In this document: piece after piece, positions 30,295 to 52,827 of the stretch
Layout of the letters: each line of letters opens with the position of its first letter
Position numbering within the stretch: position 1 is the stretch's first letter
Assembly (NCBI GenBank): GCA_040285745.1
Contig: JAUFOR010000008.1
Span: 372,001-436,000, forward strand
Origin: Barthelona sp. PCE
Lineage: Eukaryota
Reading direction: 5' to 3'
DNA length: 64,000 nucleotides
The notes under the pieces: model-generated
Told to the model about the DNA's origin: nothing
What the model saw: the letters and a program-made list of their open reading frames with translations, nothing else
Databases searched by the model: none
Program-made: the position numbers and the translations under genes

Positions 30295-31767
30295 TTAATA
30301 TTGAATTCCCAACGAAGCCATCATTTCTCTGGCCTGAGCATCATCGTCAGTAGCACCAGGCATCAACTGACGGATCATTCGCTTGGCCTGATTGTTCTTA
30401 GGTGCAATCTTCAAGACATGATCGAGATCACTGTATGCCTTATCGAAATCACGTAATAACACAGCAGTTCTTGCTCTATATATATAAAATGCAACAATTT
30501 TTGGGTTTTTAGCAATTGCAATAGAGAAATGCCAATATGCGCGGGGAAAATCACTCTGATTAAAATATACACAAGCTTGATTAAAATGAGAGATTGCTAA
30601 TCTAACCACTGCATCCCATGCCTTTTGCTCAACGAGCCTTGCCTGATGCTCGAACTCTGGAGTTGTGTGTTTCACAACCTTTGCGATATGTTTCATTTTG
30701 TTGCTCTCAATCTTTAACAACTCAGAGGCTCTTAGGAAATCTTGCGTTGCATCAGGGTAGTATTCGAGAATGCTCAACGTTTCTCCTCTATTAATAAGCA
30801 GATCTGTAGTTTCACAATGTTCTAAACCTCGAGTAAATATCTTCACCGCCTTCAAATGCCTCTTCTTTTCAAAGCATTGAAGTCCATATGAATTACAATG
30901 TACAGCAACATCTTTCCGTATTTCCTGCATGTTCTCCTCGGTCATACCGTTATCCAAGAGATCCTTCAACAATTGCTCAAGCTCAGTAACAGCTTGCTTT
31001 GGGTTGTGGAACAAACGATGGACGTTCGCCCTCTGCTTAATAAGATCAATGCTCAGAGGATCAACCTCGATTGCCTTGTTCAACATCGCCAGTGCCTCAT
31101 CGTAATCTCCTTGAAGAACTTGTAAGTTAGCATAAGATGATAAGTTGTGCGTTTCTGTTTCTAACACTGATAGTAGCTTGAGTGCTGGGGAGTGGTCTGG
31201 GTTCATCTTTAGCGCGTTCATGGAGAGCTGCCGTGCTTCTCCAAACATGGAATTCATTGCTGATATCACTGCGAGTGTTGTCAGACCATCCACATTTGCA
31301 GTTAATACTTCTTTCTTTTGACGTGCAATATCTAGTGCTGCAGATCTACGTCCTTGCAGCAGGCACACTTGAATACATCTTACAACAGACAGACAATGTG
31401 TTGGATCGGTGTTCATGGCTTGTTTAAAATGAGCCATAGCTTCCGTATATCTGCGTTCATTGAGAAATACAAGCCCAAAGTACGTCGAAAGGTCGGCGCT
31501 CACAGCTGATATGTCTTCCCTTTTTGAAAAAAATAAGCAACGGATGTAGTAAAATTGTGCTTCACTAATATCTCCTATTGCAAGATATGCCTGAGATATT
31601 TTTTGTGCTAAGTATGCGTCCTTTGGGGCCAAAACTAGCAAATGCTTGCCCAAAATAATAGCTGATATATAATCTCCGTCATTTAAGAAAAGATCGAGTT
31701 CATCGAATCCTGCTGCTAATCTGGAGTTAATGACCCTTCTACCGTCATTATCACTGAGATCGTTCAT
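30295..31767 (-). CDS. Tetratricopeptide-repeat protein (TTC16-like)
   Basis: Multiple TPRs (A...F..A...DP, LLINRGE, FSIAIAKNP...FYIYRA, L...PKN). Confidence 0.85.
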   Translation of the reverse strand: MNDLSDNDGRRVINSRLAAGFDELDLFLNDGDYISAIILGKHLLVLAPKDAYLAQKISQAYLAIGDISEAQFYYIRCLFFSKREDISAVSADLSTYFGLVFLNERRYTEAMAHFKQAMNTDPTHCLSVVRCIQVCLLQGRRSAALDIARQKKEVLTANVDGLTTLAVISAMNSMFGEARQLSMNALKMNPDHSPALKLLSVLETETHNLSSYANLQVLQGDYDEALAMLNKAIEVDPLSIDLIKQRANVHRLFHNPKQAVTELEQLLKDLLDNGMTEENMQEIRKDVAVHCNSYGLQCFEKKRHLKAVKIFTRGLEHCETTDLLINRGETLSILEYYPDATQDFLRASELLKIESNKMKHIAKVVKHTTPEFEHQARLVEQKAWDAVVRLAISHFNQACVYFNQSDFPRAYWHFSIAIAKNPKIVAFYIYRARTAVLLRDFDKAYSDLDHVLKIAPKNNQAKRMIRQLMPGATDDDAQAREMMASLGIQY

Positions 31768-36872: not shown

Positions 36873-37293
36873 TTATTCCTCTTCACGGCCCTTGATCTTG
36901 TTCATGATGATCTGGCGCTCACGAGCGTTGAGGGTAAGTTCGCGACCGTTCTGAGCTCTAAGAGTGGAAAGGAAACGCTTGTTGTAGAGGGAGCGAAGCT
37001 TGGAGCGACCGGTTTTGGGAGCTCTCTTCTCCATTTTGGGTGCATCAGGGCAAGAGTTTCTGACCTTACCAGTATGAGCGAGTGATCCGTGCTGACGAGC
37101 TAGGTGTTAGATCTGTAAACTGCAAAAAAGCATCATCGTTCTCAGAACCGTCCCCAGGTTATAACAGGAAGACAAAAAAAGCAAAGGGAAGAAACTAAAA
37201 AATTTCTTTCTGCTTATCTATGCCTCCAAATAAAATAGACTAAACCCATGCGTTTGTAACCGATTTAGATACTCTTTGATAATACATACCCAT
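36873..37293 (-). CDS. RPS30: 40S ribosomal protein eS30, 2 exons (37293-37290, 37099-36873)
   Basis: Spliced product MARQHGSLAHTGKVRNSCP...KTGRSKLRSLYNKRF. The start codon lies in an exon contributing only ATGG; the frame is restored by removing 37289-37100. Confidence 0.93.
37100..37289 (-). other. Spliceosomal intron in RPS30 (190 nt)
   Basis: GTATGT...ATCTAACACCTAG; phase 1. Confidence 0.9.
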
Positions 37294-37908
37294 TTTCTAA
37301 AAGTTCGATATTAGAAGAAAAAACAAAAGGAAGTGATTTACTGATTCACACTCTTTCCTTCCGTACAACATATGTCGGATAGTGCAAAAGACACTTCAGC
37401 AACATATATTTTCGAGGAAAATATGCTTTGTTGATAGTATTTGTTAGTATGTTTTTTTGCATGGTTTTCTGTTGCTTTTAAGTTGTTTCACTATGTTTAT
37501 ATGGTCATTTTATAGTCCAACATGACGTTGTGACATTGTTTATGTTCGTTAAAAATGTTTATGTTGGATTGTACTTTTCTGTACAATTAAAGGCATTGGT
37601 TGAACTTATTTTTGGGACTTGGGCTTGCTTTTGTATCCAAGTTAAAGGGATTTGGTTATTTCTTTTGGCAATTAGATGATGTAAATAGTATCGCATAAGA
37701 ATGTGATAAATGTGTCTGATTCACCTTGAAAAGTAAGGTAAACCTGTACGCTACATGTCAGTAAACTTGTGCATCAAAATAACATGTTTTAACACCTAAA
37801 TAATGTATATCAATATATTTGCTGGCTGCGTAGTGTTCATCCATCAACAAAGACACGAATCAATCAATAAATTTAGCATTAACAATGTATTTCACTTTAT
37901 ATCCTTTA

Positions 37909-38295
37909 ATGAAAGTTCTAGTTATATTGGCTGTATTCTTGTGCATTGCCGCGTGCCACCAGGACACTTCAAGGTTCTACAAAGGTTCTATCACAGCTTC
38001 AAAAGAAGAGAAATCACACACTTTTGCTGCACCTGTAGAAAACAAGTCCTCTCCACTTGCAATGGGTCTGAGCATGTTTGTCATAACCGCCACCCTCGCT
38101 GCTGTTGTTATCATTGGTAAACAGCACTTCACAATGAACCGTTTTGCCGTGAGACTTGTATTCTTATGTCTCAATATCTTTATCTTTGCTATGATTGTCG
38201 TTTACTGGTTGAAGTGGAACGCCTTCCAAGGTATGGCAGTGACCGTTCCTCTCATGCTTGTTTGGCATTTGTTATCAAAGTTTTTGATTAAATAA
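37909..38295 (+). CDS. Small membrane protein (signal peptide + ~3 TM)
   Basis: Hydrophobic N-terminus MKVLVILAVFLCIAAC followed by further hydrophobic segments. Confidence 0.7.
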   Translation: MKVLVILAVFLCIAACHQDTSRFYKGSITASKEEKSHTFAAPVENKSSPLAMGLSMFVITATLAAVVIIGKQHFTMNRFAVRLVFLCLNIFIFAMIVVYWLKWNAFQGMAVTVPLMLVWHLLSKFLIK

Positions 38296-38342
38296 GATTG
38301 AATTCTGTGTGAAAAACAGTAAAGTGAAACATATATTCTTGT

Positions 38343-41300
38343 TTACAATGATCTTAATGACACATTTTGTTTAGAAATAACTGTTAATGTAAAACTACGC
38401 TCATTTGAAGGTTCGAAAGTAAAGGGTACTATTAAAAAGTTACCTTTTGAAGGAATAATCATGGTATGGCCAATGATTTCACGACGATAAGCTATTTCTG
38501 AACATAAAATTTCATTACGGCTTTCAATTATGCGACCATCATGTGATGCATCCATTATATGAACTGAAAAACCCATCGCAACATGTTTCTTGCCCGTCAA
38601 ACGAGCATCTTCCTGTCTTAGAACAACATATACTTCACCTGGTTCATCAATAGTAAGTGCAAATTGAGGATTATGACGGAAAGTACCATAGTTGCTACAT
38701 CCACCAGCAGATTGTCCTCTCCACTCGGAGTTGATGATAACTTGGTTCCATTCAGAATTAAAAACCATTGTTACATACATATTTCTGAAGTATTTGGTTA
38801 TGTCTTCATATGCTATAAAAAATTCACCATCTTCAACATCCAATGTGTGACCGAGCTTCTTCAACAGTCTAGGGGTCCATCTACGGTCAACATCGGACCA
38901 ATTTCCTGTGTATTCGTAGCCACCAAGAGGGTTACGCAATTTTAACAATTTTGTTTGTCCAATTTCAACCAATGAGAGAACAGCATATGCATGTCTCGAC
39001 TGGATACCATCCTTTGTACTCACATCGCTTGAAAACGAACCAAGTGCAACAAGAAACCCACTCGAAAAATACTCCCGGATTTGTTTCCACATAAGACCCG
39101 TTACAAAGCTCTCGCTAACATCCTTGAAGTGAATGATTTCACCGAAGGAATTAGGTATCATATCTGCCAATGCATGACACACAACGCCCTTCTGAATCCG
39201 GTCAGCGCTGCCATACAACTTAGCATATGCCTTCTCAAGGATGGAGACCCATGGGTTCTCTTCGACAGAACAGCGACTTAGGACTAATTTCCCATCATCA
39301 TCCACGGGAAGTCGATCATCAACTGTTATTTCGTGTTCACCGTTTTTAAACACGACACGGTAGTACCCCTTATCTGGTATAGCGGCTCTGAAGACCTGCT
39401 CGACCAGCTGCGGATTTGTCTTTAATAAAGTGAACGCAGTTATTAAATAGCAAACACCAAGATGTTCGCTTTGGATGGGATCACCCTCTCCAAAACTGAT
39501 CTCTCCAGAAATCTCGTACATGTCACTGAATCGTGCCATTGTACAGTTCACATCCTCGGCTTCAAAGTCATAGACAAAATCATCTTCGAACTTTTCCTCG
39601 CTGTCTCTTACTCTCTGCATCTCTTCCTCCATGTCAAGCAAGGGCAAGGGAGATGGGCTAGCGACTGCGATGTTTGACTTTTTCTGATGAAGCTCATCAA
39701 TCTGATTGAGACATCTGTCCAGCTGCTGACCAACTGTGTTTCTAAGGTTCTTAAACTCACCCATTTGAATTAACTGGATGTTGATCAGTTCGGCTTCAGA
39801 TGGGTCGTCAGGGTTAAGCTTGCTAATTGAAGCTTGTAAATCACTGATCTTCAATTCTAGTTCATTATTTCTTGATATAAAGCCATCACGCTGAGCGGTG
39901 AGTGCATTGAGACCACTGTCTATATTAGACTCCATCTTCCTTACCTCATGCTTATGTACCTCATGGTTGATACTCTGTTCGAACTTACCCTTTATGAACT
40001 CTTCGTTCTGCATTTGATTCTCGAGGTTTTCCAGTTTAGTCTTCAGATCTGACGTTGTGATACTTGTCTGGAGATGCTCAATAATCTTCTGACGCTCCTC
40101 CTGTGACATTCTCTCGATATCATCAATGGTATAACTCTGACCTTCCTCTTCATCCGTCTGCTCACCCATTACTTGATTAACGTAATCTAAAATGATGAGT
40201 GCCTGCTCTTGGATAAGCGAAATACCACTGAAGAAGAGTCTGCTGAACAACACAGCACTGAAATCCAACCTTTGTTTGAATTTTTTGTGTATCGACTCAA
40301 TGATGTACCATCTTTGGAAGTCAACAGTTGTATTGTTCAGATCCTTTTTCTTCTGGATAATAAAATCATCAATGCTGTACACGTCATCAAACACCAAACC
40401 CGTGAGGTCATTACTTTCACTGTCTTCAATCTGTTGCAGTTGCGACTTGGTCTTGTCAATGTTGAGCGCCTTTGATGTAGTGTCTGTCTCCAGGTTGAGC
40501 ATACCCACAGACTTCTCAATGGCAAGATCGATCAATGGCCGGCTAACTACGTCTTCGATTTCATTATATTTAATGGAAAGTAAAAGCTTGAGATGTGTAC
40601 AATAATAAAGAATGAGAGAAAATGCTATGAAGAATGCAGCGCAACTCACCTGGAGTGGTTTCAAAAACACCATCGCAAACATGGACCAAGCAACCACTAG
40701 AACTAAACCACCAAACAAAAATAGGGGGTACTTTGAAATATCAAATACTCGACCAACACGAACATCGAACTCCAATAGAGGTAAGACGGAGTTGTTTGTG
40801 TAGCAGACATGGAATCCGTTGCTGGATAACAAAGGGAACTCTGCTAAACCAACAAGGATTAATAGCAAAACAAAAAGTGTCATTGTAATCGTTGTACCCC
40901 AGAAAATACCCTCACCTTGCATACCGATAATGATCGATAGGATCACAAGACCGACTGAACTGGTGATTGCAAGTGGTCGATTTTTGACTGGAATGTAGTG
41001 ATCATTAACAAAATATATTCTAAGAGTACGCACAAGTAAGAACACTAATAACAGTGATAGACCTGATCCTATTTGGAATAGAGCGTTCTTTCTAACAGAC
41101 ATTGAGCCGATCACAGCACCGATTATACTTAGAACACCAATTACGAGCATCTGGACACCTACAACAGTCTTGATTGCAAACGCCTCGGTGCGCCACAACG
41201 TAAACAGCGTCACAACATACACGATAAAGATGATTCCAGCGGAAACAGTCACCATAGAGTTGACTAAAGCCCATATTAAGAGTGAAATCAGACTTGTGAT

Positions 41301-42944
41301 TGAGCAAGTGATGACAAATGCATCTAGCTTAGTGGAGTACAGTAGGTGAACGACGAATCCACCACCCAAAACAATAGACAGGGGGAGGAAGAGAGGTGTT
41401 GACCAATACAGAACTCCATCAAGACCTACTAGTGCAACTATTACAGAAACCAGCATGATTGAAACAAATGCAATGGTGCAACGGATGAATTGAGTTCTTA
41501 TAAGCCGAATCATAGGATGCTCTGCTTTAAAAGAAAAATTCATGCGTTGAACACATACCAATGTACATCTACCCATAACGATAAGGGGGAAGAATGCAAT
41601 GCATTCGATTATGATCATGTACGAGTGTGTGATGATAAACAATGGAATGGCAATAATAATTGAAATAATTTGGGCAAATATATAGAAATACCAAAAATTC
41701 TTATACTGGCCAGTTTTTTTCTCTAAATTCTCTTTCTTTGTTGGGTGGAAAGAGGGGAAGTAGCGCCAAGTTATGTACCAGAGAACAAGCAAACCGCTGA
41801 GAAGAACACTACCTACTAAAAATTCCCATTGGTTATGAGAAGAATCAATCATTTTGATTTCCGGAGCAGAAATCCAATTAGGTTTGACGATTCCAAGCAC
41901 AACATCACCTAAATAAATGATTGTGAAAAGAATATAAACAATAATTGAATTATTCTGTTTTCCTGAACGTAATAATGAAGTTCTTGCAAAATTAATAATT
42001 GTATCGACTGAATTCTTCTTTTTCAATCGGATGATTTCACCTACAATTCGACTAAGTAAAAATGAAAAACCAAAGAAAAAGATTATACTGTGACCAATGA
42101 AAACATAATTATAAGAACTCATAACAAGCGAAAAACGAATAGCAATAAACATAGCAAACATCATGGCAGGGTTGGAACTGTAAATGTTTGTTGGAAATAA
42201 CATAATACTGATATCAAATAACAGCAACATAACACTAGTAAGAAGTGCAGTGTATTTAGCACCAGATTTATCAATATTATGATGTACAATAGAGTATACA
42301 ACGAGGACAACAACACTGAGGAAGTAATAGAACCATCCATTGGATTCTTTTTGTTTAATTCTTAAATCCTTAATGTCCAGATTATTTTGTAACAATTTTT
42401 TCATTGTTATTTTGGGTAAATCTATTCTTTTTGTAAAGAAAAAGTATAAGAAATATGTGTTAAGACTTAGAAAAACAAAACTTAATGACATATAGGAATA
42501 CTGATCAGCAGTAACTACAATGTAAAAAAAGAATGCATATACAACACATAATGCAATAAAAACTGCAATTTTGCTAATGAAAGTTGTGATGAACTGCTTG
42601 GAAATAGATAGAACAAGCCATAATAATAATATTATTGTTGATATGATCATTGCAAAATGCATAAACAGAAATGCATCTGGTTTAATGTCAGACGCTACAA
42701 TATTTACCAGGAATATCACCAAGAATCCGACTGAAAAAACAATAGATACGAGTTGCAAGAAATACATTAATGCACTCATTTTAAAGAATTTTCTAAACGT
42801 CTTACCCTCAGTAAAACGACCCTTGATCTGCTTTAAAATATTTAAAAAAGGAAACAAGAACAATACTGCAAGAGTCAAATATTTCAATACAAGAGTAGAC
42901 CATTCATCGCGACCGATAAATGTTTCGGTTGTGAGGACTCCCAT
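38343..42944 (-). CDS. Multi-pass membrane calpain (DEK1-like: TM region, linker, CysPc, domain III)
   Basis: About 20 hydrophobic segments, then LGVCY, TVDDRLP, WVSILEKAYAKLYG, HAYAV, LRNP, W.G.SAGGC...NPQF, IVPFTFEP. Confidence 0.92.
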   Translation of the reverse strand: MGVLTTETFIGRDEWSTLVLKYLTLAVLFLFPFLNILKQIKGRFTEGKTFRKFFKMSALMYFLQLVSIVFSVGFLVIFLVNIVASDIKPDAFLFMHFAMIISTIILLLWLVLSISKQFITTFISKIAVFIALCVVYAFFFYIVVTADQYSYMSLSFVFLSLNTYFLYFFFTKRIDLPKITMKKLLQNNLDIKDLRIKQKESNGWFYYFLSVVVLVVYSIVHHNIDKSGAKYTALLTSVMLLLFDISIMLFPTNIYSSNPAMMFAMFIAIRFSLVMSSYNYVFIGHSIIFFFGFSFLLSRIVGEIIRLKKKNSVDTIINFARTSLLRSGKQNNSIIVYILFTIIYLGDVVLGIVKPNWISAPEIKMIDSSHNQWEFLVGSVLLSGLLVLWYITWRYFPSFHPTKKENLEKKTGQYKNFWYFYIFAQIISIIIAIPLFIITHSYMIIIECIAFFPLIVMGRCTLVCVQRMNFSFKAEHPMIRLIRTQFIRCTIAFVSIMLVSVIVALVGLDGVLYWSTPLFLPLSIVLGGGFVVHLLYSTKLDAFVITCSITSLISLLIWALVNSMVTVSAGIIFIVYVVTLFTLWRTEAFAIKTVVGVQMLVIGVLSIIGAVIGSMSVRKNALFQIGSGLSLLLVFLLVRTLRIYFVNDHYIPVKNRPLAITSSVGLVILSIIIGMQGEGIFWGTTITMTLFVLLLILVGLAEFPLLSSNGFHVCYTNNSVLPLLEFDVRVGRVFDISKYPLFLFGGLVLVVAWSMFAMVFLKPLQVSCAAFFIAFSLILYYCTHLKLLLSIKYNEIEDVVSRPLIDLAIEKSVGMLNLETDTTSKALNIDKTKSQLQQIEDSESNDLTGLVFDDVYSIDDFIIQKKKDLNNTTVDFQRWYIIESIHKKFKQRLDFSAVLFSRLFFSGISLIQEQALIILDYVNQVMGEQTDEEEGQSYTIDDIERMSQEERQKIIEHLQTSITTSDLKTKLENLENQMQNEEFIKGKFEQSINHEVHKHEVRKMESNIDSGLNALTAQRDGFISRNNELELKISDLQASISKLNPDDPSEAELINIQLIQMGEFKNLRNTVGQQLDRCLNQIDELHQKKSNIAVASPSPLPLLDMEEEMQRVRDSEEKFEDDFVYDFEAEDVNCTMARFSDMYEISGEISFGEGDPIQSEHLGVCYLITAFTLLKTNPQLVEQVFRAAIPDKGYYRVVFKNGEHEITVDDRLPVDDDGKLVLSRCSVEENPWVSILEKAYAKLYGSADRIQKGVVCHALADMIPNSFGEIIHFKDVSESFVTGLMWKQIREYFSSGFLVALGSFSSDVSTKDGIQSRHAYAVLSLVEIGQTKLLKLRNPLGGYEYTGNWSDVDRRWTPRLLKKLGHTLDVEDGEFFIAYEDITKYFRNMYVTMVFNSEWNQVIINSEWRGQSAGGCSNYGTFRHNPQFALTIDEPGEVYVVLRQEDARLTGKKHVAMGFSVHIMDASHDGRIIESRNEILCSEIAYRREIIGHTMIIPSKGNFLIVPFTFEPSNERSFTLTVISKQNVSLRSL

Positions 42945-43011
42945 TTATGAAATTGACTCAAAAATAAAGTTGAAAGGAAAGTGATAATCAAAAACATCTC
43001 TTTTTTATTAA

Positions 43012-44015
43012 CTAGGCTTTGCTCTCTACTTCATCGGACTTAGTAGGGTTCTCGAAGGCATTCTTTTGTAAATTTCTACTATGTCTAACGTTTCTTAATA
43101 ACTCAGTACACAAACTAACCTTCACTAACGTTTGTTCAATACTGTCCTTAAATGATTCATTGAAATCTTCTGTCAAAATGTGACTGTGTTGTAACAAAAC
43201 ACTTAATAATTCTTGTCCTAATTGACTATCTTCTACACTAGGACCTTCAGATACAAGATCAACCAACATTTCTTTAGCGTAAGTTAAATATTCACGCAAA
43301 GAAGAAATATCAGAACGAATCAGATCAATGGCACTCAGACGATCTGTAGATTTTGGTAACGAATCAACGTCATTATCTTCATAGTTCTTCATAATAGAAA
43401 TTGCCAATGCTTGAGAAGCAGGAATATGACGACGTAAATCGATAGGAATCCACTGAAGATCCTGAGAATAATCATGCTGATCAGCGTTCTTAAGTTTTTC
43501 ATACAAATCATAGGTAATTGAATGTGCAATAATGGGAATATCAAGTGTCTCAAGCGTTGTGTCAAGATGAACGTGAACAAGGACTTTTAAAGGACCTACA
43601 ATGTCACGGAATGCGTTGGCAAGGCCACCAACAATCTTGCTATCAAATGAACCAGTTGTATAAAAACCTAAAACTGAAAGATTAGTATGCATAATCAAAT
43701 CCATGGCGGTTGAAACGGACTTGGAGAATTGGATCTAAATGTTAGTGTAACTTTTTGTTGGGAGTTAAAACGGATGAATTCAAATATCATTGCGAATTAA
43801 CTCAAAATGCATACGTTGCTCTCAGTATCGTCAGACGAACTAAAAACACAGGCATAGCTGGAAACAACAGTGATGGCGTTGTTTATAGCAGCATTACCAA
43901 CCAAGATGCCGCAAACGAGTGGAGAATCGACTTGTCGAACCTTAAAATGATCAAGAATGTGAAAAATTGGTGTAGCTTCGATAGAGATGTACGGAACTAA
44001 GGGATTCTGTAGCAT
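43012..44015 (-). CDS. EIF3F: Translation initiation factor eIF3 subunit F (MPN-), 2 exons (44015-43815, 43734-43012)
   Basis: IFHILDHF..R....V.G.LVG, VLGFYTTG, HVHLDT, D..LG..L...EDF. Removing the intron joins two ORF-track fragments in frame. PSMD7/CSN6 is a less likely alternative. Confidence 0.75.
43735..43814 (-). other. Spliceosomal intron in eIF3f (80 nt)
   Basis: GTATGC...ACTAACATTTAG; phase 0. Confidence 0.9.
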
Positions 44016-44419
44016 TGTCAAAGTGTGAAAGTGCGAAAAGGAGTAAAAAATGCTTTTGCAATGGTTTAGAACAGTACAGAATTGCTGTACGCTATTGTGT
44101 CGCAGATACAGTGTGGAACGTTGTCTTAAATATTTGCTAAATTCAGTTTGTTGAAGCATTTTTGATTTCAGAAATTTACTACTGTTTGTTACAACAGTTT
44201 GGAATTATACCGGGGTAAGATGCCACAATACATGAATTAATCGTTTATAAAACGTCATTCTGTTGGACAGGTAAACACACCAAGTGTGGTGAAAATCTAG
44301 TGTTTTTATGTAGACTAGGGGTCACAACTTTCACATAATACCCAATTTATAAGTGAAATACGCTTCATAACGATTTTGGATGCTGTATTCTATTTCTCAC
44401 ATCCTTTCAATCATCCTTT

Positions 44420-46015
44420 ATGATAACCACGCTTAGAAGTTTGCTCGATGCACATTTAACGCGAGCGGCTTCATCAATCCAAACAGCTATTGACGAAACT
44501 CATCGACAGATAGATAGTATTCGTCATCAAAAGCAAAGGGACATTCAAGAGCTGAACGTTTATTTAGCCAAGCTTTCGCGTAGTATCGAAAAAGGCTCTG
44601 AGTTACCTATAGCCCCATCCTCCTTAACAATCCCCAAACCAGCGCCATTAAAGCCTATCACATTTTCCCCAAGGGAGGACACAGAGAGATTGCGCCCTTT
44701 GCGTAGAAAAACTAGAACTAGCCTTCGAGATTCAATGTTTGAAGATGTGGATGATGATGATACCGATTCTGAAGAATCAAGTGAGGAACTGAGTGACCCA
44801 GAAGAAGAAAACATCAGCATTTCACCCCCTAAAAGAACGAACGGAGGTATTTCCATGGATTTCTTGAGGGAACAAATTGATGAAGATGAAGATGTGTTAA
44901 GCGAACCAGAAGATTCCCGTTTAGCTGAAGGCTTGGTGGAACTAGAAGTGAGAGTCAATGAGAGAGATGATTTAACAGCTATTGATAACACAGACTGGCA
45001 TCCTAAAGCTGATCAACGAGTTTCTTTCATTTTAACAACAGAACAACAGGATATGCTGTCAATAATAGAAAAGAAGAAGAAGAAGGATGTAGAACGTATG
45101 AAACGTGAGAAAGAAAAAGAAGATTTAATGATGGAATTCGCTTTGTATGGTGGTGATGCCAAAAAAAAAAGAGAATTATTAGCTAAACTAGATGCTCTTG
45201 AAACAGAAGGTACTACAGTTGTTGAAGAAGCCTTTGAAGAAGCTATAGAAGAAGCTGAAGAAACTGAAAAGGTTGAAATATCTACTGAAGAAGAAGACAT
45301 GATTAGCAAAATTATGGAAATGCATTTAGAATTAAGTGATGTGATAGATCATTTCTCTGCATTAGATTTAACTGATGAATTGCAACAAGCAACAGAGATT
45401 AAAAAATCGCATAAGAATTCACGTTGGTTGTTTGGATCAAGTTTGAATCACAGTTTAAAGGATACAGAAATGTTAGTACTCAGTTTAGCACAATCTATTT
45501 TTGTTCATAATGAATTTAATGATCGTATTCTCGCTAATGTTTACTACAATCTGACTGATGATATAAATATACCACCTTTCCCACATAGTAATTGGGAAAG
45601 TATAGGTTTTCAAGGTGATGATCCCGCCACTGATTTTCGTGGTGTTGGTATTTTTGGTCTGTTACAATTATTCTTTTTTTCCAATTGCAGTAATGCCAAA
45701 AAATGTTTAGAAATTTCAAAAGAAAGAATTATTCCTTTTACTTTGGTTAATTTTAACATAACTAGTTTATTACTCAATTGTTTACGTTCTGCAGACCTAT
45801 ATAAATTAATTAATACACAATATAGGTCGTCAGGTAACCCAGGTATCATCATATCAGTGTTAAATGATCTACATTTAGGTTGTTGGTTATATCTTTTAGA
45901 AAAAGGTGATCAGTTCAGCTTTACGGCATTTTCTGAATTAAAGAATGAGATCATTGAACATTTAAAGAGTAATCCGGAACGAATTTTTAATTTGGCTCAA
46001 GAATTTGAGCAGTAA
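44420..46015 (+). CDS. ELMO-domain (ELMOD) Arf/Arl GAP
   Basis: WESIGFQGDDPATDFRGVG.FGLLQL, PF....NIT; acidic N-terminal half. Confidence 0.9.
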   Translation: MITTLRSLLDAHLTRAASSIQTAIDETHRQIDSIRHQKQRDIQELNVYLAKLSRSIEKGSELPIAPSSLTIPKPAPLKPITFSPREDTERLRPLRRKTRTSLRDSMFEDVDDDDTDSEESSEELSDPEEENISISPPKRTNGGISMDFLREQIDEDEDVLSEPEDSRLAEGLVELEVRVNERDDLTAIDNTDWHPKADQRVSFILTTEQQDMLSIIEKKKKKDVERMKREKEKEDLMMEFALYGGDAKKKRELLAKLDALETEGTTVVEEAFEEAIEEAEETEKVEISTEEEDMISKIMEMHLELSDVIDHFSALDLTDELQQATEIKKSHKNSRWLFGSSLNHSLKDTEMLVLSLAQSIFVHNEFNDRILANVYYNLTDDINIPPFPHSNWESIGFQGDDPATDFRGVGIFGLLQLFFFSNCSNAKKCLEISKERIIPFTLVNFNITSLLLNCLRSADLYKLINTQYRSSGNPGIIISVLNDLHLGCWLYLLEKGDQFSFTAFSELKNEIIEHLKSNPERIFNLAQEFEQ

Positions 46016-46054
46016 ATGTGCTTTGTTTTTTTTTTCCTACTTTCTTAATTTTTT

Positions 46055-48289
46055 ATGGTTCTTTTACATCCTCCGCCACGTAAATTTCCGTCATGGAAGA
46101 TTGTAACACAGTGTGATGGTTTAAAAGAACGTTTTGAAAACTGTATTGAAAATTTCATTCAGGAGTTGAAGATTGAAGAGCCATCTTTCGCTTACACTGT
46201 TGCAGATTTTCACGCCATGTGGGTTTACTTGGTAGAAGCAAGCGATTATTATCTTGGTCGTTTTGGACATTTTCGTCATCTTACAAAGAAGATACCGTTT
46301 GAATACTTCATAGATTTCGACAAGGGTGATGGGATAATATGCCGACACATTCTAGGAAGTTTCTTAGACTTTATTGAAGAGAGAAAACTAGATTTGAGTG
46401 AACTTTCTGAAATGATTAAACAGAAACCTAACATTACCAATAGTGATCAAAGGATGCTTGCAGCAAATGAGAATTTCACTCAACATCTCATTCGGCGGTT
46501 CAATCTTCCTATTGGAAGTGATTATGTGGAAGCTTCGTATCAAATTGGTTTAGCAAGCAGTTTAGCTCCATACGAACCAATTGATATTGTTGAATTCCCT
46601 GAAGAAGAGGTTCCTGCATTCATCGAGTGGTCGCGTGATTTGTATCAAAGTTTGAAACAACAAAAATATATTGCAACATACAAAATTTTCATTGAAGAAG
46701 ATGTTTTGCCCATTCACAAGGCTCTTATTCAACAGGCATGTCACTCAATGCAAGTTCCTATTGTCACCGATCGCCGTGAGGCAACGCATATTCTTCTTAG
46801 TGATACTCTAACTAGTTGTGGTGAGTGGAACGAGGTTGATTTTTACAGTGTTGAGTTCTCAAAGTTCAGAAGTGAACAAGAGCTACGAGTAAGCTGGTGG
46901 TATTACCCCGATAGTTACGATGTGTTCCTTCCACAGTTTTTTTTCGTAAGGCAGACTATTAATGGTAAGCAGTACAAGATGTTGGATTTGAAGAAGTTGC
47001 GTAAGAGCAATTATGATGTTCTCCGTGAGGCAAAGAAGGGAAGGAGACCAAAAGATAGAGTTTTGCGTGATAAGAACAACGTTCGTCGTACAAAAAGATC
47101 AGTAACTAACGTTCGTTGTCGTTGGATACTTGACTGGTTTTACTTTAACGAGGAGGTATCCTGTTTTGACTATGAAGAAATCCTACCTGAACTCAAAACA
47201 TCGCATCTAAAGCAGGAAAAGAAGCAAAGACAAGACGCCCGTTATGAAGAAATGGTTCCCGTCTTGGAACAGCCAGTACATTCTACACCAGGTGTTGGTA
47301 TCCCAGTACCGCACAAGATGGGGCTGGTTTCCTACGTCCCTAATGTCGTTTTGTCGGAAGACAGCTTAATCAAGACTTTAGTTGACGTTAAGGTCAACCC
47401 ACATTTGAATGCTGCGAAACAGGTATCACAGATCGAATATGTAACACCAGAAATTGCTTCTTGGTTTAACCCAGATAGTGTGAGTGAGGTTGAGATTAAG
47501 ACATTAGGTATTAAGGGTGCTGTAGAATATAACCGATATCGCAAAGTGCGTAACTTTTGTGTATCAGCGTACAGAATGAACCCAAGTATCTACTTCTCAG
47601 TTACAGCTGCACGTAGAGCATTGAGTGTTGATGTTAACTACATTTACAAAGTCCACTGCTTCTTAGAGCGTTGGGGTTTGATTAATTACAGTGGTGGACG
47701 TCAATTACCCAATCCACAACAACGTGTACCTAAATTGGTTGTTACTGACAATGAGTTGAACAGACAGCAACGTACATTAATGCGTTACACTTCAGAGAAG
47801 GTAAAATTAGTTCAAGAGTATTTTGAAAAAAATGTGCATGAAGATCATTCTACTCTTACTGAATCAGACTGGAAAGCTATTGCTCAGGAATTGGATATGG
47901 TGGTAACTGATTTGAAAGTAATTTTCTGTGGTAGCTTTACGAATGCCAATCATGAACCTAAGTTACCTGAAGATTCAACTAAGATGGAACAAGCTGATAT
48001 CAGTCGAGATGTTTCTGAAGTTTCGAAAGAAATTGATGAGGAGATTCGTGATGCTGTGTATTCCACAATTCATCAAGAAGTTCAATTATTAAATGATAAA
48101 ATTCAGACTTTTTCTGATCGCTCCAATCAGATGGAGAAGTATTTTAATCAATTGAGAATGTATGAGAATAGACTGATGGATAAAGCCATTGAATTACGTA
48201 AGCGTGAATTAGTAATTGAAGAACTTGAATCAAAGTATGCGAAAGAAGAGGAACAAAACGATTCTGAAATGATGATGATTGATGAGTAA
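46055..48289 (+). CDS. SMARCC: SWI/SNF subunit SMARCC/SWI3
   Basis: SWIRM domain (SWF...V.E.E, Y...RNF....YRMNP..Y.SVTAARR, VHCFLERWGLINY), N-terminal WYYPDSYD and RWILD...FNE, C-terminal leucine zipper. Confidence 0.88.
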   Translation: MVLLHPPPRKFPSWKIVTQCDGLKERFENCIENFIQELKIEEPSFAYTVADFHAMWVYLVEASDYYLGRFGHFRHLTKKIPFEYFIDFDKGDGIICRHILGSFLDFIEERKLDLSELSEMIKQKPNITNSDQRMLAANENFTQHLIRRFNLPIGSDYVEASYQIGLASSLAPYEPIDIVEFPEEEVPAFIEWSRDLYQSLKQQKYIATYKIFIEEDVLPIHKALIQQACHSMQVPIVTDRREATHILLSDTLTSCGEWNEVDFYSVEFSKFRSEQELRVSWWYYPDSYDVFLPQFFFVRQTINGKQYKMLDLKKLRKSNYDVLREAKKGRRPKDRVLRDKNNVRRTKRSVTNVRCRWILDWFYFNEEVSCFDYEEILPELKTSHLKQEKKQRQDARYEEMVPVLEQPVHSTPGVGIPVPHKMGLVSYVPNVVLSEDSLIKTLVDVKVNPHLNAAKQVSQIEYVTPEIASWFNPDSVSEVEIKTLGIKGAVEYNRYRKVRNFCVSAYRMNPSIYFSVTAARRALSVDVNYIYKVHCFLERWGLINYSGGRQLPNPQQRVPKLVVTDNELNRQQRTLMRYTSEKVKLVQEYFEKNVHEDHSTLTESDWKAIAQELDMVVTDLKVIFCGSFTNANHEPKLPEDSTKMEQADISRDVSEVSKEIDEEIRDAVYSTIHQEVQLLNDKIQTFSDRSNQMEKYFNQLRMYENRLMDKAIELRKRELVIEELESKYAKEEEQNDSEMMMIDE

Positions 48290-48320
48290 AGACAATTAGA
48301 TTTATTTGTAAATACACTAG

Positions 48321-49529
48321 TTAGTATTCAGGGTAACTGCTGGAATATCCAATGGAACCTTCCATTGTACTGTGGAAGTCAAATGTAAGCTTCTTAGGAT
48401 CTTCCCAAGGGAATTCATTACGACCAAAATGACCGAAACAACTGGTAGGTGTGAAAATAGGACGTTGTAAACCGAGATCACGAATAATACAACCGGGGCG
48501 AAGATCAAAGTTATCGGCTACAATTTGTGTGAGGAGCTCATCATCAAAGCGACCAGTACCATAACTGTCAACGAAAACACTTAAAGGTTGAGCTAAACCA
48601 ATAGCATAAGAGATTTGAACCATGATACGTGTGCATAATTGAGCATGAACCAAAGACTTGGCGATCCAACGGGCAGCATAAGCAGCAGAACGATCGACCT
48701 TTGTGGCATCCTTTCCTGAAAAAGCACCACCACCATGGGCTCCCCAACCACCGTATGTGTCAACAATGATCTTACGGCCGGTGAGACCAGCGTCAGCGGC
48801 GGGACCACCAAGGGTGAAACGACCACTTGGGTTAATGTGATAGATTGTCTCCTCATCAAACATATCGCGAGGAAGAACAGAGGTGATGTGAGGCATAAGT
48901 GCTTCACGAATTTCTTCGTTTGTAACATTATCCTTGTGTTGTGTACTGACAAGAACGGTGTGAACTCGGATGGGAATGGGGTTAGAGTTCTCATAGAGAT
49001 ACTCAACTGTGACCTGAGACTTACAGTCAGGTAATAACCACTCGACTTCACCTGATTCTCTCAAGTCAGCAAGAAGCTTCACAATCTTTTGGGAAAGAAC
49101 ATATGAGAGAGGGAGTAGTTCCTCAGTTTCGTTGCAAGCGTAACCAAACATGAGACCCTGATCACCAGCACCAAATGTTTCAGCGTTCTTAGCAACGTGA
49201 ACAGCGTTGGCAATCTCTTGAGATTGTTGTTCGATGTAGACATCAACTGCACATGTGTCACAGTTAAGGCCGGACTCATCACTGATAAATCCACACTCAC
49301 GGGCGGCTTGACGAGCGACAGCCTCGAAATCAACTTTGCTATCAGTAGATATCTCACCCAAAAGGATGATTCTGTTGCCCTTGGTAGCTGTCTCGCATGC
49401 AACGCGAGAATTGGGATCGTCTTTTAAGCAAGCATCGAGAACAGCATCGCTTACTCGATCACACATCTTGTCAGGATGACCGAGACCCACAGCTTCAGAA
49501 GTAAACAAAAATGATCTGACGGAAGGCAT
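48321..49529 (-). CDS. MAT: S-adenosylmethionine synthetase
   Basis: FTSE, GHPDK, GAGDQG, GLTGRKIIVDTYGG, GGGAFSGKD..KVDRSAAY. ATG at 49529. Confidence 0.97.
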   Translation of the reverse strand: MPSVRSFLFTSEAVGLGHPDKMCDRVSDAVLDACLKDDPNSRVACETATKGNRIILLGEISTDSKVDFEAVARQAARECGFISDESGLNCDTCAVDVYIEQQSQEIANAVHVAKNAETFGAGDQGLMFGYACNETEELLPLSYVLSQKIVKLLADLRESGEVEWLLPDCKSQVTVEYLYENSNPIPIRVHTVLVSTQHKDNVTNEEIREALMPHITSVLPRDMFDEETIYHINPSGRFTLGGPAADAGLTGRKIIVDTYGGWGAHGGGAFSGKDATKVDRSAAYAARWIAKSLVHAQLCTRIMVQISYAIGLAQPLSVFVDSYGTGRFDDELLTQIVADNFDLRPGCIIRDLGLQRPIFTPTSCFGHFGRNEFPWEDPKKLTFDFHSTMEGSIGYSSSYPEY

Positions 49530-49833
49530 TTTTTGACACGTAAAGTGTTGAAAAGGTGAAAAAAGTTCAAAAAAGAAAGATACTGACTTTTTCATATACC
49601 TCTTTGAAAAAAGTAGTCAGAAAGCACAGAACCCGGAGCTCTGAGTGGATAGAATCTTTTGTACATACATTTTTGGTTGAAATATTTTTTCAAAGATTTG
49701 AAGCAGTTTTGTCACAAAATAACAGTTAAAGTACTTATAAAAGTACGAAAACAGCCTGGGAGATGAGGTTATAGATTTTTTCGCTAAAGTTTCACTTTTT
49801 TTATGGAATTTGAAGATAAAACAAGGAACAATT

Positions 49834-50694
49834 ATGGGAACACAGTCTTTTAAGCGCAATTCACTCCTTCATTTAAGAAGATTGTTAAGCATTTTATGCA
49901 AATCACCTGTATTTTTATTCTTCATCACTTTATTAATTGGGCAAGGTACATATCTGATTGCTATGATTGAAGATTCTCGCATTGTCACAAACAAACCGGT
50001 CGAAATCTTTTCAAAAGGCTATACCTTTCTTGTAGTTTTAGTTGTTATTATCTGTTTCTTTGGGCAGATAATTCCCTTGTTGTTTTCAACACACGAGCTC
50101 TTTTATCTCACCCAGCAAGACAGGATACCATGGTTTGCACTTACTATTTTAATGTGTATCTATATTGCATTTGGTTTACGTTTGTGGTTTGTTAAGAGCA
50201 TCCCTCCGTTCGGAACCGTCGAGTCCAAGCGATTCATGGTGACATGTGTTATATATGGATCAATTTTGTTATTTGTATTTCTTTACACCTGCATGTTTGT
50301 GTGGTTTGATAATGATAAAGAAAGTATATTTGTGCGCTGTTACACAATTTTCCTTGGATTGCTATTTATTTTAGCAATATTTTTCATTGTTAAAACATGG
50401 AAACACCAACAAAGATTGCAACGAATTGCTCAAGTACGAAATAATTCAGCACGTCGTTCAAGGAAGAGTACATATCAACCAGGTGTCATCACATCTGACA
50501 TATTAGAAAACGGTGGACTTCCTCAAGTACAAAATCCCCTTCATCAACAAGTAGATATGACTTCTAAATTTAAGAATGCACGTATTTTAGATACGGAGGA
50601 GTACGAGGAGAAACAGAGACAGCAGGTAATTGATAGACAGAATGCTGTTATAGATTCAATTGTTAAGAACCATATAACCCGAAAGGAATACTGA
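49834..50694 (+). CDS. Hypothetical 5-TM membrane protein
   Basis: Five hydrophobic segments and a charged tail; first ATG at 49834. Confidence 0.7.
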   Translation: MGTQSFKRNSLLHLRRLLSILCKSPVFLFFITLLIGQGTYLIAMIEDSRIVTNKPVEIFSKGYTFLVVLVVIICFFGQIIPLLFSTHELFYLTQQDRIPWFALTILMCIYIAFGLRLWFVKSIPPFGTVESKRFMVTCVIYGSILLFVFLYTCMFVWFDNDKESIFVRCYTIFLGLLFILAIFFIVKTWKHQQRLQRIAQVRNNSARRSRKSTYQPGVITSDILENGGLPQVQNPLHQQVDMTSKFKNARILDTEEYEEKQRQQVIDRQNAVIDSIVKNHITRKEY

Positions 50695-50697
50695 TCA

Positions 50698-51264
50698 TCA
50701 TCGTCCAGAAAAATGTTCATCTCTGTATTTAGCATATATAGAATGTTCACCAAATATTTTTGGTACTTTTATACTTTCAGTTGTTGGAACTTCTTCTTTT
50801 TCAGTTTGATCTGAGTATTGTTCTATCAATTTTCCAATTTTTAGCAATTCTTCAAGATTCTTTCGCTCTAGTTCAGCTCTATCTTGTAGAATTTCAATAG
50901 CTTCCTTTTTTTGTTCATCTTGCTGTTTTGGAATGATTTTTTGTTGTACTGCAACACAGTTTAGATCTGCAATATAATCAGAAGTTTCAACATCAGTTCG
51001 GACCGAAAAATATTGCAAACAACGTGGGCATTTCATTACAAACCGAAAAGAGCTTAATCCCATATAAGCATTCTGTATCTTTTCTTTTTTTGCATATAAT
51101 CGTGTACCCCTTCGAATAAATTCATCACAATTCAAACATTTAACAGTGATCGGGACATCAATCCTGGTTGAAATATTAGATTTCTTAGATTTTGTTTTTC
51201 TTTTCAATCGTGCATATTCAAATCCCTTCGGCAGATATTTTGATGCACCCTTTCGCTCACTCAT
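50698..51264 (-). CDS. YJU2: Splicing factor YJU2/CCDC94
   Basis: MSERK...KY.P..F, C..C.EFI..G....AKKE, Y.G...FRF..KCP.C, TD....DY. Confidence 0.9.
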   Translation of the reverse strand: MSERKGASKYLPKGFEYARLKRKTKSKKSNISTRIDVPITVKCLNCDEFIRRGTRLYAKKEKIQNAYMGLSSFRFVMKCPRCLQYFSVRTDVETSDYIADLNCVAVQQKIIPKQQDEQKKEAIEILQDRAELERKNLEELLKIGKLIEQYSDQTEKEEVPTTESIKVPKIFGEHSIYAKYRDEHFSGR

Positions 51265-51456
51265 AATGGTTTAAAACTCTGAAAAAGTTAATAAAGTCCC
51301 AAACGATGTTTTGTCATTTTTAACCTTTCTCAGACAAACAATTTCATTCACGAGTGAGAACTGTTGCATAATAGCCATTTCCTTTGAGTTATATATTGTT
51401 TTGTTATAGTTTTTTTTGTTACTTTTTTTTTCTGGTTTGTTGCAAGCATTTGATTG

Positions 51457-52104
51457 ATGTATAAAATATTTAAAGTTGTTGAAAATTATTTGAGACTTTT
51501 TCCTGCTGGAAATGAGGAGAAGATGTATCTATATCGGAAAAAAATGTATTTTCGATTTTTTATACTTCATGTTACATTTGTTGTTTTTAGTTTGTTGAGT
51601 TCCATCACGTTGGGCATCGAGAACACAAGTTTCACAAGTCTAATTAGTGTTATAGTATGCTGCACTATTTCAACTTTTTTTTTCTTATTTGTATTACCTC
51701 TTGCATTTTATTTCCCTCCTTCTGATGTCAAATATGCACGAAAAGCAATGAAGAGGCGGCATATAAACATGGTTCATCTCACAGTGTGTTCAATTCTTTT
51801 AAGTTGTGTTGTACGCAATTTTATTAATTTTTATGACAGTTGGTATGCTTTAGAAGATGTTTTACCATCATCAGTGAAGATTATAGTTACAGTTATTAGT
51901 GTGATTGATATAGCATTTAGTATACACTTTGTTAAAGACATATATTACTTACTTTCATCGGTTTTATTTATAGTGAGTAATGTTTATGATACATTCAGTT
52001 TAAATCAAACAAAAAGTAATTTTGAAACTGTTTTATTTGAAGTTGAAGAAGAAGAAATAGACACACCTGATCGTTATGGAACTTTACATTCACCAAGTAT
52101 TTAA
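51457..52104 (+). CDS. Hypothetical multi-pass membrane protein
   Basis: Several hydrophobic segments; start uncertain. Confidence 0.65.
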   Translation: MYKIFKVVENYLRLFPAGNEEKMYLYRKKMYFRFFILHVTFVVFSLLSSITLGIENTSFTSLISVIVCCTISTFFFLFVLPLAFYFPPSDVKYARKAMKRRHINMVHLTVCSILLSCVVRNFINFYDSWYALEDVLPSSVKIIVTVISVIDIAFSIHFVKDIYYLLSSVLFIVSNVYDTFSLNQTKSNFETVLFEVEEEEIDTPDRYGTLHSPSI

Positions 52105-52119
52105 TAATTCAAATTTCTT

Positions 52120-52827
52120 CTATAAACGAACTTCCATCTTTTCTGTAACAACTGTTGTAACTTTGTTAGGAACACGTTGTAAAAGGTTACAAAAATCTTC
52201 ATAGCATACTTTACCAACATTTTGTGTATCAGCTAGTTCAATTGTCTTATCAACCATCTGCTGAAGCTCAATATCTCCTAAATTGTTGCCAACCATCATC
52301 TTTAGAACCTGGAAAAGTTCTCCGTTTGAAATATACCCATCATTGTCGACATCATATACAGAAAAACAGAAACGTAACTTATCTTCTGGATCAGCTCTTG
52401 GTGAGAAGATTGAGAACACTCTAACGAACTCTTCAAAGTCAACTGATTCATCATGGTTCTTATCTAATAGACTCAATAACCTTTGTCTTAATGGATTCAT
52501 AGAGAAATCTAAATATTAGCATGTAAACATGGTGACCATTGTATCATCACATATTTGGGCCCTTTTTATCATTTAACTGTGTAAATACTTCAAAAAATTA
52601 TGAATGAAAAACAACCAATGAAAAAAATAACTACAATGTGATGTATATGCCCAAAAAATCATACTTGGGATCTGGAGGAACTCATCACCGGTCAGCCCAC
52701 CGCTGGCGTCCTTATCAAGAACAGAGAAACTGTTCCAAAGCTTTTCAATTTCTTCAGCACTGAGTTCAGATTCAGCTTGCAGCTGAGAGATTTCGTCGTT
52801 CGTTAATACACTTGCTTCGGCGCCCAT
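52120..52827 (-). CDS. CNB1: Calcineurin regulatory subunit B, 2 exons (52827-52665, 52508-52120)
   Basis: MG myristoylation start, four EF-hands, GYISNGELFQVLKMMVGNNL. The spliced junction reads QIPNFSMNPL. Confidence 0.95.
52509..52664 (-). other. Spliceosomal intron in calcineurin B (156 nt)
   Basis: GTATGA...GCTAATATTTAG; phase 1. Confidence 0.9.

Follow-up and report, generated by a model that had tools for sequence, protein, structure and literature searches.

Internal pairing that shortens long introns is already in print for Giardia lamblia, Spironucleus (S. vortens and S. salmonicida) and Trichomonas vaginalis, for which the single-stranded remainder predicted in the long introns is 35-45, 40-42 and 25-44 nt, respectively, and such stems have also been proposed there as a step towards trans-spliced split introns (PMC6679479). 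The main text of that report contains none of the word stems shuffl, random, covari or compensatory. In yeast, zipper stems have support from in vivo probing and are enriched relative to shuffled controls in many yeasts (PMC12350175). Furthermore, intron signals in the style of Giardia and Trichomonas have been reported as convergent in intron-poor eukaryotes (PMC2483917) and, for that reason, a taxon should not be read from an intron motif.

Here we describe three introns from a 64-kb window, the whole stretch of DNA that was analysed. They lie in a gene for an MPN-domain protein, a gene for the ribosomal protein eS30 (RPS30) and a gene for calcineurin B (CnB). As in the published introns of more than 50 nt, in which a stem-loop is predicted between the splice signals and roughly 25-45 nt are left (PMC6679479), a stem-loop between the signals, which are kept single-stranded, is predicted in all three: in the MFE of the MPN intron, in the MEA structure of the eS30 intron (pair probability 0.25-0.50) and as a helix, here called helix A, in the CnB intron (up to 0.96). 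As structure-shortened introns and a possible route from them to trans-splicing have both been published, these introns would add further examples. A literature search found no genome paper that describes them.

Three predicted introns and their host genes

The original prediction named introns of 80, 156 and 190 nt, and their lengths and coordinates, together with the positions of the stem arms quoted for them, were found in the sequence as given. The introns and exons are as follows.

43735 to 43814, minus strand: intron of the MPN-domain gene (originally called eIF3f), 80 nt, phase 0, GTATGC ... ACTAACATTTAG
43815 to 44159, minus strand: MPN gene exon 1, starting at the ATG at 44159 or at the in-frame ATG at 44015
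43012 to 43734, minus strand: MPN gene exon 2 including the stop codon, from domain and homology matches
52509 to 52664, minus strand: intron of the calcineurin B gene, 156 nt, phase 1, GTATGA ... GCTAATATTTAG
52665 to 52827, minus strand: CnB exon 1, from an EF-hand match
52120 to 52508, minus strand: CnB exon 2 including the stop codon, from EF-hand and calcineurin B matches
37100 to 37289, minus strand: intron of the eS30 gene, 190 nt, phase 1, GTATGT ... TCTAACACCTAG
37290 to 37293, minus strand: eS30 exon 1 (ATGG), with a frame continuous with exon 2
36873 to 37099, minus strand: eS30 exon 2 including the stop codon, from homology to eS30 chains

All three introns begin with GTATG (GTATGC, GTATGA and GTATGT) and end with CTAAY-N4-AG, in which exactly 6 nt, the last three of them TAG, come after CTAAC, CTAAC and CTAAT; the branch A is the eighth nucleotide from the 3' end, and CUAAY is fused to the 3' splice site. 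The spacing of 6 nt after CTAAC is also that of the Giardia consensus VCTRACACRCAG, one more nucleotide being typical of Spironucleus introns, but the 3' end is YTAG/TTAG here and CAG in Giardia, and at 80-190 nt these introns differ from those of S. vortens, which measure 40-67 nt (PMC6679479). Similarly, a strong branch consensus near the 3' splice site, in a setting of few introns, is shared with the convergent ACTAAC-type 3' structures, although the work on these concerns signals rather than internal stems (PMC2483917).

Removal of the intron restores a conserved reading frame in the eS30 and calcineurin B genes. The translation of eS30 exon 2 is an eS30 protein whose match to solved eS30 chains has an E value of 9e-11, and reading the intron by eye shows that nearer AGs give early stops. 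EF-hand matches flank the CnB junction on both sides, and for exon 2 the matches to calcineurin B chains have E values of 1e-36 and better. The unspliced MPN frame runs into a stop at 43797; after splicing, the N-terminal half of the JAB domain in exon 1 (positions 6-61 of 117 in the Pfam model) is joined to the MPN C-terminal region in exon 2. This continuation of conserved domains across each junction supports the view that the three predicted introns are real. MPN exon 2 resembles CSN6/MPN/eIF3h clusters and has a weak MitMem_reg match (E 0.013, 15.8 bits, below the Pfam cut-off of 26.6); the domain matches and this likeness uphold an MPN/MitMem_reg protein, but not eIF3f specifically.

Seven candidates in the window carry the strict motif, and only the three introns interrupt a gene. 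Relaxing the motif and testing the reading frame of each candidate gave no further convincing intron in the window, the other candidates lying inside long open frames, and a motif scan with the same test found no short introns in the 64 kb. As in the split introns of Giardia, complementarity between the 5' and 3' parts of the intron would draw the splice signals together (PMC6679479). However, all three introns here are continuous and in cis, with 7-10 bp of pairing and with contiguous exons that lie on one strand, 80-190 nt apart, and the window showed no gene split into pieces. On the sequence, all three are best described as ordinary cis-spliced GT-AG introns of what appears to be an intron-poor, gene-dense protist with the standard genetic code; their signals, among them an extended 5' splice site GUAUGN, resemble those of Giardia and Trichomonas.

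Predicted stems in the three introns

The stem arms and competing helices, all on the minus strand, are listed with their positions in the intron.

43797 to 43803, minus strand: MPN stem, 5' arm GAGTTAA, intron positions 12-18, in the constrained MFE, centroid and MEA structures
43762 to 43768, minus strand: MPN stem, 3' arm TTAACTC, intron positions 47-53, pair probability 0.97-1.0
37268 to 37277, minus strand: eS30 stem, 5' arm AAAGAGTATC, intron positions 13-22, in the MEA structure
37125 to 37134, minus strand: eS30 stem, 3' arm GATGCTTTTT, intron positions 156-165, pair probability 0.25-0.50
52649 to 52655, minus strand: CnB helix A, 5' arm TTTGGGC, intron positions 10-16, pair probability 0.26-0.96, in the MFE
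52554 to 52560, minus strand: CnB helix A, 3' arm GCCCAAA, intron positions 105-111, in the MFE
52632 to 52638, minus strand: CnB helix C, 5' arm CATTGTA, intron positions 27-33, crossing helix A, pair probability about 0
52537 to 52543, minus strand: CnB helix C, 3' arm TACAATG, intron positions 122-128, origin of the 28-nt flank in the original prediction
52527 to 52554, minus strand: CnB local 3' hairpin, intron positions 111-138, competing with helix C, about -6 kcal/mol

In the MPN intron, GAGTTAA and TTAACTC form the core of the constrained MFE and leave 11+27 = 38 nt, exactly as proposed. The stem is robust, being present in the constrained MFE, centroid and MEA structures with a pair probability of 0.97-1.0, and it is the only helix of at least 7 bp in the intron. 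The fold energy (z = -3.08) is matched by 1.0% of 300 shuffles (3/300).

The 10-bp stem of the eS30 intron, which includes two G-U pairs, would leave 12+25 = 37 nt, and to this extent the original prediction holds. Local hairpins compete with it: the pair probability is 0.25-0.50, and it is found in the MEA structure but is absent from the MFE, which consists of four hairpins with 31 exterior nt. Forcing the stem costs 0.9 kcal/mol (-36.7 vs -37.6). A stem of at least 10 bp leaving at most 45 nt arose in 0.5% of 1000 shuffles of this intron, and the energy of the whole intron is ordinary (z = -0.87 constrained, -1.64 unconstrained).

The structures might be real and yet have another role, for example in splicing feedback by the encoded ribosomal protein, as in several yeast ribosomal protein genes, as a small RNA carried in the intron or as a transcriptional element in a 5'-proximal intron. 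The eS30 gene codes for a ribosomal protein and has its intron directly behind the start codon, the MFE of this intron contains a strong internal hairpin at intron positions of about 75-111, and regulatory structures have been reported in yeast ribosomal protein introns (PMC12311795, PMC13232506). However, the eS30 intron matched no Rfam family at E up to 5, C/D snoRNA-like matches in the CnB intron were below threshold (best 19.6 bits vs a gathering score of 60), and the MPN and CnB genes are not ribosomal protein genes. A search of the whole window at Rfam gathering scores gave no match, and no tRNA was found in it. We therefore regard such a role as very unlikely.

For the CnB intron, the original prediction reached 9+28 = 37 nt from the outermost complementary blocks, but these flanks belong to two different helices that cross each other, the 9 nt to helix A and the 28 nt to helix C. 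Helix A (10-16:105-111) alone leaves 9+45 = 54 nt and has a probability of up to 0.96; helix C (27-33:122-128) alone leaves 26+28 = 54 nt and has a probability of about 0. The local 3' hairpin that competes with helix C brings the fold energy to -23.5 kcal/mol, vs -17.5 without it, and the constrained MFE, with two helices, leaves 28 nt. The stable helix A starts at the same 5' distance as the stems of the other two introns, with 45 nt on its 3' side, or 18 nt when the second hairpin is formed. A pseudoknot of helices A and C, considered as a rescue of the 9+28 figure, was rejected as unfavourable, at -15.4 plus -5.1 = -20.5 kcal/mol before penalty vs -23.5 for the nested fold, a deficit of at least 3 kcal/mol that assumes no pseudoknot penalty and comes from nested-only models, which cannot properly score a pseudoknot. 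The energy of this intron is ordinary (z = -0.50 constrained, -0.01 unconstrained). Thus, in comparison with the published structured introns (PMC6679479), one of the three introns here is without a fit.

Residual length and helix register against shuffled controls

The controls were shuffled intron interiors, folded like the real introns. By MFE, shuffles of the 80-, 156- and 190-nt introns leave on average 37.7, 34.5 and 31.5 nt. The ensemble means are 34.4, 27.9 and 34.8 nt for the real introns and 35.6, 32.2 and 31.3 nt for their shuffles, each with a standard deviation of about 5. By either measure, the residual single-stranded length is separable from shuffles in none of the three introns. 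Because the residual lengths of the real introns do not differ from those of shuffles, the convergence on about 37 nt is no more than expected by chance, and folding down to this length is uninformative by itself, the average remainder in shuffles being 31-38 nt. The shared value of 37-38 nt arose in part from choosing stems by eye and does not establish a ruler.

The register of the closing helix behaves differently. As a geometry statistic we used the probability that a single helix closes the intron and leaves flanks of 9-13 nt on the 5' side and 23-29 nt on the 3' side. For the MPN intron this is 0.655, against a shuffle mean of 0.032, and for the eS30 intron 0.399, against 0.012, each value being reached by 3/300 shuffles; the CnB intron has 0.025, and 9.7% of its shuffles score as high. 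These values refer to three introns, with stems and a geometry window that were picked after inspection of the data. At 20 C, the ensemble residual means drop to 29.3, 26.4 and 32.9 nt (80, 156 and 190 nt) and the geometry probabilities to 0.204 (MPN), 0.003 (CnB) and 0.025 (eS30), although the MPN and eS30 values still exceed those of 98-99% of 200 shuffles. In total, the introns go beyond shuffles in energy in one case of three, in closing-helix geometry in two and in residual length in none. The original prediction is confirmed in part: the outer stems of the MPN and eS30 introns are rarer than chance, but the CnB geometry and the residual lengths are not.

These numbers bear directly on the possibility that AU-rich introns such as these form the stems by chance, without selection, and that the shared residual length is automatic and reflects no ruler. 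The ends of large RNAs are generally close together. The residual lengths, indistinguishable from those of shuffles by MFE and ensemble, are what chance would give, and a single stem of at least 7 bp that leaves 35-45 nt is already present in 15-18% of 1000 shuffles (4-7% for 36-39 nt). Furthermore, for two of the introns the energy of the whole fold is unremarkable, and the stems were chosen by eye with a geometry window set afterwards. Against chance stand the energy of the MPN fold, equalled by only 1.0% of 300 shuffles, the outer 10-bp stem of eS30, equalled by only 0.5% of 1000, and the single flank geometry that these two introns share, at 3/300 shuffles each. On balance, chance pairing seems to us rather doubtful as the explanation of all of this, while deserving to be taken seriously.

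The strong form of the original prediction was that a spliceosome measures a constant length, about 37 nt, that all long introns are tuned to it and that they are a stepping stone to trans-splicing. The MPN and eS30 introns do leave 38 and 37 nt once their outer stems form, and related claims have been made for relatives with uniform short introns (PMC6679479). However, the CnB intron leaves 28 or 54 nt and not 37, the window holds no short intron that would define a native length, and the residual figure shifts with temperature and model. Pairing of 7-10 bp is also far below what is deemed necessary for fragmentation to be tolerated (PMC6679479), and because stems of this length are far too short to hold separate transcripts together, the idea of a precursor to trans-splicing stays speculation. 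We consider this strong form distinctly improbable.

A possible closing helix and the lineage of its host

The reading towards which we lean, if only slightly, is that these are ordinary introns, two of which have zipper-like stems that bring the branch point closer to the 5' splice site. A closing helix in the MPN and eS30 introns could pull the splice signals together. The predicted helix starts 11-12 nt past the 5' end, finishes 25-27 nt short of the 3' end and would seal off nearly the whole interior of introns of 80 (MPN) and 190 nt (eS30). It could then act as a zipper stem, cutting the path that links the 5' splice site with the branch point to about 30 nt, and the flanks left single-stranded would be where the splicing machinery binds. 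What the sequence shows is the introns, their signals and stems with their predicted stability relative to shuffles; formation of these stems in vivo and a contribution to splicing are inferred.

As in the zipper stems of Saccharomyces cerevisiae, which start at least 10 nt past the 5' splice site, the stems start after 11 and 12 nt. The yeast definition also has at least 20 nt between stem and branch point and a linker of 42-85 nt, whereas the gap from stem to branch A is 19 nt (MPN) and 17 nt (eS30) and the total linker 30 and 29 nt, respectively; both linkers are tighter than the yeast model permits (PMC12350175).

If the stems are functional, a further, apparently isolated lineage would join those that use intron folding in place of a complex spliceosome, and the 80- and 190-nt introns would offer two compact cases for mutational tests. 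The more useful outcome is methodological. The published yardstick, single-stranded distance after folding, fails here to tell introns from shuffles, which a closing-helix statistic specific to the register can do. Controls of that register-specific kind are needed wherever structure-compensated introns are claimed, both in this organism and in its relatives. A more daring view is that an isolated lineage keeps a fixed helix register (11-12 / 25-27 nt), with the footprint of a minimal spliceosome, about 37 nt, as a hard geometric rule. We think this unlikely; were it true, and the lineage neither diplomonad nor parabasalid, the rule would be either of independent origin or very old.

What, then, can be said of the lineage? 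Hexamitinae read TAA and TAG as glutamine. Genes in the window end at TAA or TAG and, read in the standard code, lie close together, which argues against a place in the Spironucleus/Hexamita group. The diplomonad label of the original prediction is tentative, and a lineage on the Giardia side, or another, would be compatible with this code. S. vortens is described as having a single stop codon (PMC6679479). The best named relatives of MetK are from Blastocystis (62-63%), mtHsp70 is at most about 53% identical to any match, and a 1344-aa protein with a CPSF_A domain matched only itself; a collection of 5.8 billion sequences held no close relatives of these three proteins. When eS30 was compared with solved structures, no lineage stood out as nearest. 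MPN exon 2 was also used to scan metagenomes for relatives that could reveal covariation; this returned a single locus (L001), which has a spurious 48-residue match at 40%, leaves exon 1 unmatched (tblastn) and was set aside as not orthologous. A search for look-alike windows found none. Among the other genes of the window are two reading frames of 1533 aa each (2624-7225 and 38343-42944), which are mutually unrelated.

The three introns, their signals and their genes

Three introns lie on the minus strand:

43814..43735, minus: intron of 80 nt in an MPN-family gene, GTATGC...ACTAACATTTAG
52664..52509, minus: intron of 156 nt in the calcineurin B (CnB) gene, GTATGA...GCTAATATTTAG
37289..37100, minus: intron of 190 nt in the eS30 gene, GTATGT...TCTAACACCTAG; the preceding exon 1 is ATGG only

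Their signals are identical in style, and the coordinates, lengths and stem arms quoted in the original prediction all agree with the printed sequence. When the whole window was scanned, just three of seven strict-motif candidates interrupted a gene, and a relaxed motif scan combined with a reading-frame test of the window gave no additional introns. Most likely, these three are cis-spliced introns of an ordinary kind, and their signals follow the Giardia/Trichomonas style. Perfect intron-like ends are also found on a 38-nt stretch of the plus strand (54717-54754; GTATGT...CCTAATCTTGAG), which sits within an uninterrupted frame of 1344 aa (53267-57301); because its excision would shift that frame, we took it as a chance match.

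The translation of eS30 exon 2 is the eS30 protein, matching solved eS30 chains at E 9e-11. In the CnB gene, EF-hands are present on both exons, and calcineurin B chains are hit by exon 2 with E values of 1e-36 or lower. The third gene, earlier named eIF3f, belongs to the MPN family, but the narrower identity is not established, because exon 1 covers profile positions 6-61 of 117 of a JAB/MPN domain, its N-terminal half, exon 2 has a weak MitMem_reg match and resembles CSN6, MPN or eIF3h clusters, and the gene has no match to solved-structure sequences below E 0.36.

In all three introns, the CTAAY branch sequence is also preceded, at a distance of 0-3 nt, by the word GTTTACA, which reads GTTACA in the MPN intron:

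37111-37120, minus: word in the eS30 intron
52521-52530, minus: word in the CnB intron
43746-43752, minus: word in the MPN intron

The word may extend the 3' signal, by analogy with the 'AAC[T/C]3-4R' motif that is reported to precede branch points in Spironucleus (PMC6679479), or may be a product of chance, given three sequences and variable spacing.

Stems within the introns

Each intron was folded with its first 7 and last 12 nt kept single-stranded. In the MPN intron, the stem originally proposed is exactly what the MFE, centroid and MEA structures show, with pair probabilities of 0.97-1.0 and 38 nt left. The eS30 stem exists and leaves 37 nt when forced, at a cost of 0.9 kcal/mol; however, this long-range stem appears in the MEA structure only, with pair probabilities of 0.25-0.50, and is absent from the MFE, which consists of four hairpins with 31 exterior nt.

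The 9+28 nt proposed for the CnB intron proved to be a composite of the 5' arm of one helix (A, intron positions 10-16:105-111) and the 3' arm of another that crosses it (C, 27-33:122-128); either helix singly leaves 54 nt. Helix A reaches a probability of up to 0.96 and helix C of ~0, and the MFE joins helix A to a local 3' hairpin, leaving 28 nt. With no pseudoknot penalty added, the crossing A+C arrangement comes to ~-20.5 kcal/mol; the nested fold comes to -23.5. Two 24-nt segments of this intron (52537-52560 and 52632-52655, minus) have three perfectly complementary blocks of 7-8 nt in common; these follow one order in both segments, with no inversion, and are mutually exclusive or crossing. 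At least three perfect stems of at least 7 bp occur in 5.7% of 1000 CnB shuffles.

Chance level and possible role of the stems

Folding values for the MPN, CnB and eS30 introns, in that order; the whole-intron energy z is against 300 dinucleotide shuffles of each intron interior, and residual length is the exterior nt left after folding
Whole-intron energy z: -3.08; -0.50; -0.87
Unconstrained energy z, as given by the folding tool: -1.96; -0.01; -1.64
Exterior nt of shuffled MFE folds: 37.7; 34.5; 31.5
Ensemble-mean residual, shuffles (nt; sd ~5 each): 35.6; 32.2; 31.3
Ensemble-mean residual, real introns (nt): 34.4; 27.9; 34.8
Residual length at 20 C (nt): 29.3; 26.4; 32.9
Single uninterrupted stem of at least 7 bp leaving 36-39 nt (1000 shuffles): 7.4%; 4.4%; 6.1%
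Geometry probability: 0.655; 0.025; 0.399
Shuffles matching or exceeding it (nominal): 3/300; 9.7%; 3/300
Geometry probability at 20 C: 0.204; 0.003; 0.025

Since shuffled introns leave similar lengths, a residual of ~37 nt is an ordinary outcome for sequences of such length and composition, and the 37-38 nt figure depends on the model, because the values shift at 20 C. A single uninterrupted stem of at least 7 bp leaving 35-45 nt is found in 15-18% of 1000 shuffles. Of the original observation, the stems hold in two of the three introns and the common number does not. More specific stem statistics pick out these two, MPN and eS30. A stem of at least 10 bp leaving at most 45 nt is found in 0.5% of 1000 eS30 shuffles. 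The geometry statistic is the Boltzmann-weighted share of folds in which one helix closes the intron and leaves 9-13 nt on the 5' side and 23-29 nt on the 3' side; as this window was set around the MPN values with the eS30 values already known, its shuffle figures are nominal.

The outer helix of the MPN and eS30 introns plausibly works as a zipper stem, a helix that in yeast introns shortens the distance between splice signals, and its flanks of 11-12 and 25-27 nt would probably be occupied by the splicing machinery. The stem lies 19 nt (MPN) or 17 nt (eS30) from the branch A, with a total linker of ~30 nt in both. Yeast zipper stems, which are enriched relative to shuffles, are alike in proposed working, although the MPN and eS30 stems miss the yeast spacing criteria (PMC12350175). 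Shortening by structure is a known hypothesis and a plausible one for two introns. Single-stranded remainders have been given as 35-45 nt for long Giardia introns, 40-42 nt for S. vortens, 41-43 nt for S. salmonicida and 25-44 nt (median 37) for T. vaginalis (PMC6679479); the words shuffl, random, covari and compensatory are absent from the main text of that paper. It already proposed a cis-to-trans fragmentation route, for which it regards the short Spironucleus stems as too short (PMC6679479). The idea of structure-shortened introns was restated for Trichomonas in 2025 (PMC12316389), and structure was argued to matter for Giardia splicing in 2023 (PMC10711314).

The organism and other genes

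The window is gene-dense (~45 frames in 64 kb), has a G+C content of ~38% and reads sensibly under the standard code only. This argues against the Spironucleus/Hexamita group, because S. vortens uses one stop codon (PMC6679479). The label 'diplomonad' is unverified, given the standard code and a signal style reported to be convergent among intron-poor eukaryotes (PMC2483917). Searches with MetK, mtHsp70 and the 1344-aa protein found no close relative: identity was at most 63% for MetK (best named matches, Blastocystis) and at most ~53% for mtHsp70 in the homologue search. The 1344-aa protein (53267-57301, plus) has a CPSF_A region (SF3b130/DDB1/CPSF160 class), and its sole match among 6740 candidates of the protein collection was itself; taken with the distant best matches of MetK and mtHsp70, this suggests that no close relative of the lineage has been sequenced. 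Other genes encoded here include:

19923-20840, plus: TMEM231, a ciliary transition-zone protein
30295-31767, minus: TPR protein with weak TTC21-type matches
10451-12229, minus: mitochondrial-type Hsp70
50698-51264, minus: splicing factor Yju2

TMEM231 and the TTC21-type protein suggest, from gene content, a flagellate. In a 1533-aa frame (38343-42944, minus), unrelated to the frame of equal length at 2624-7225, the N-terminal two-thirds are long and very hydrophobic, and the C-terminal part appears calpain-like by eye.
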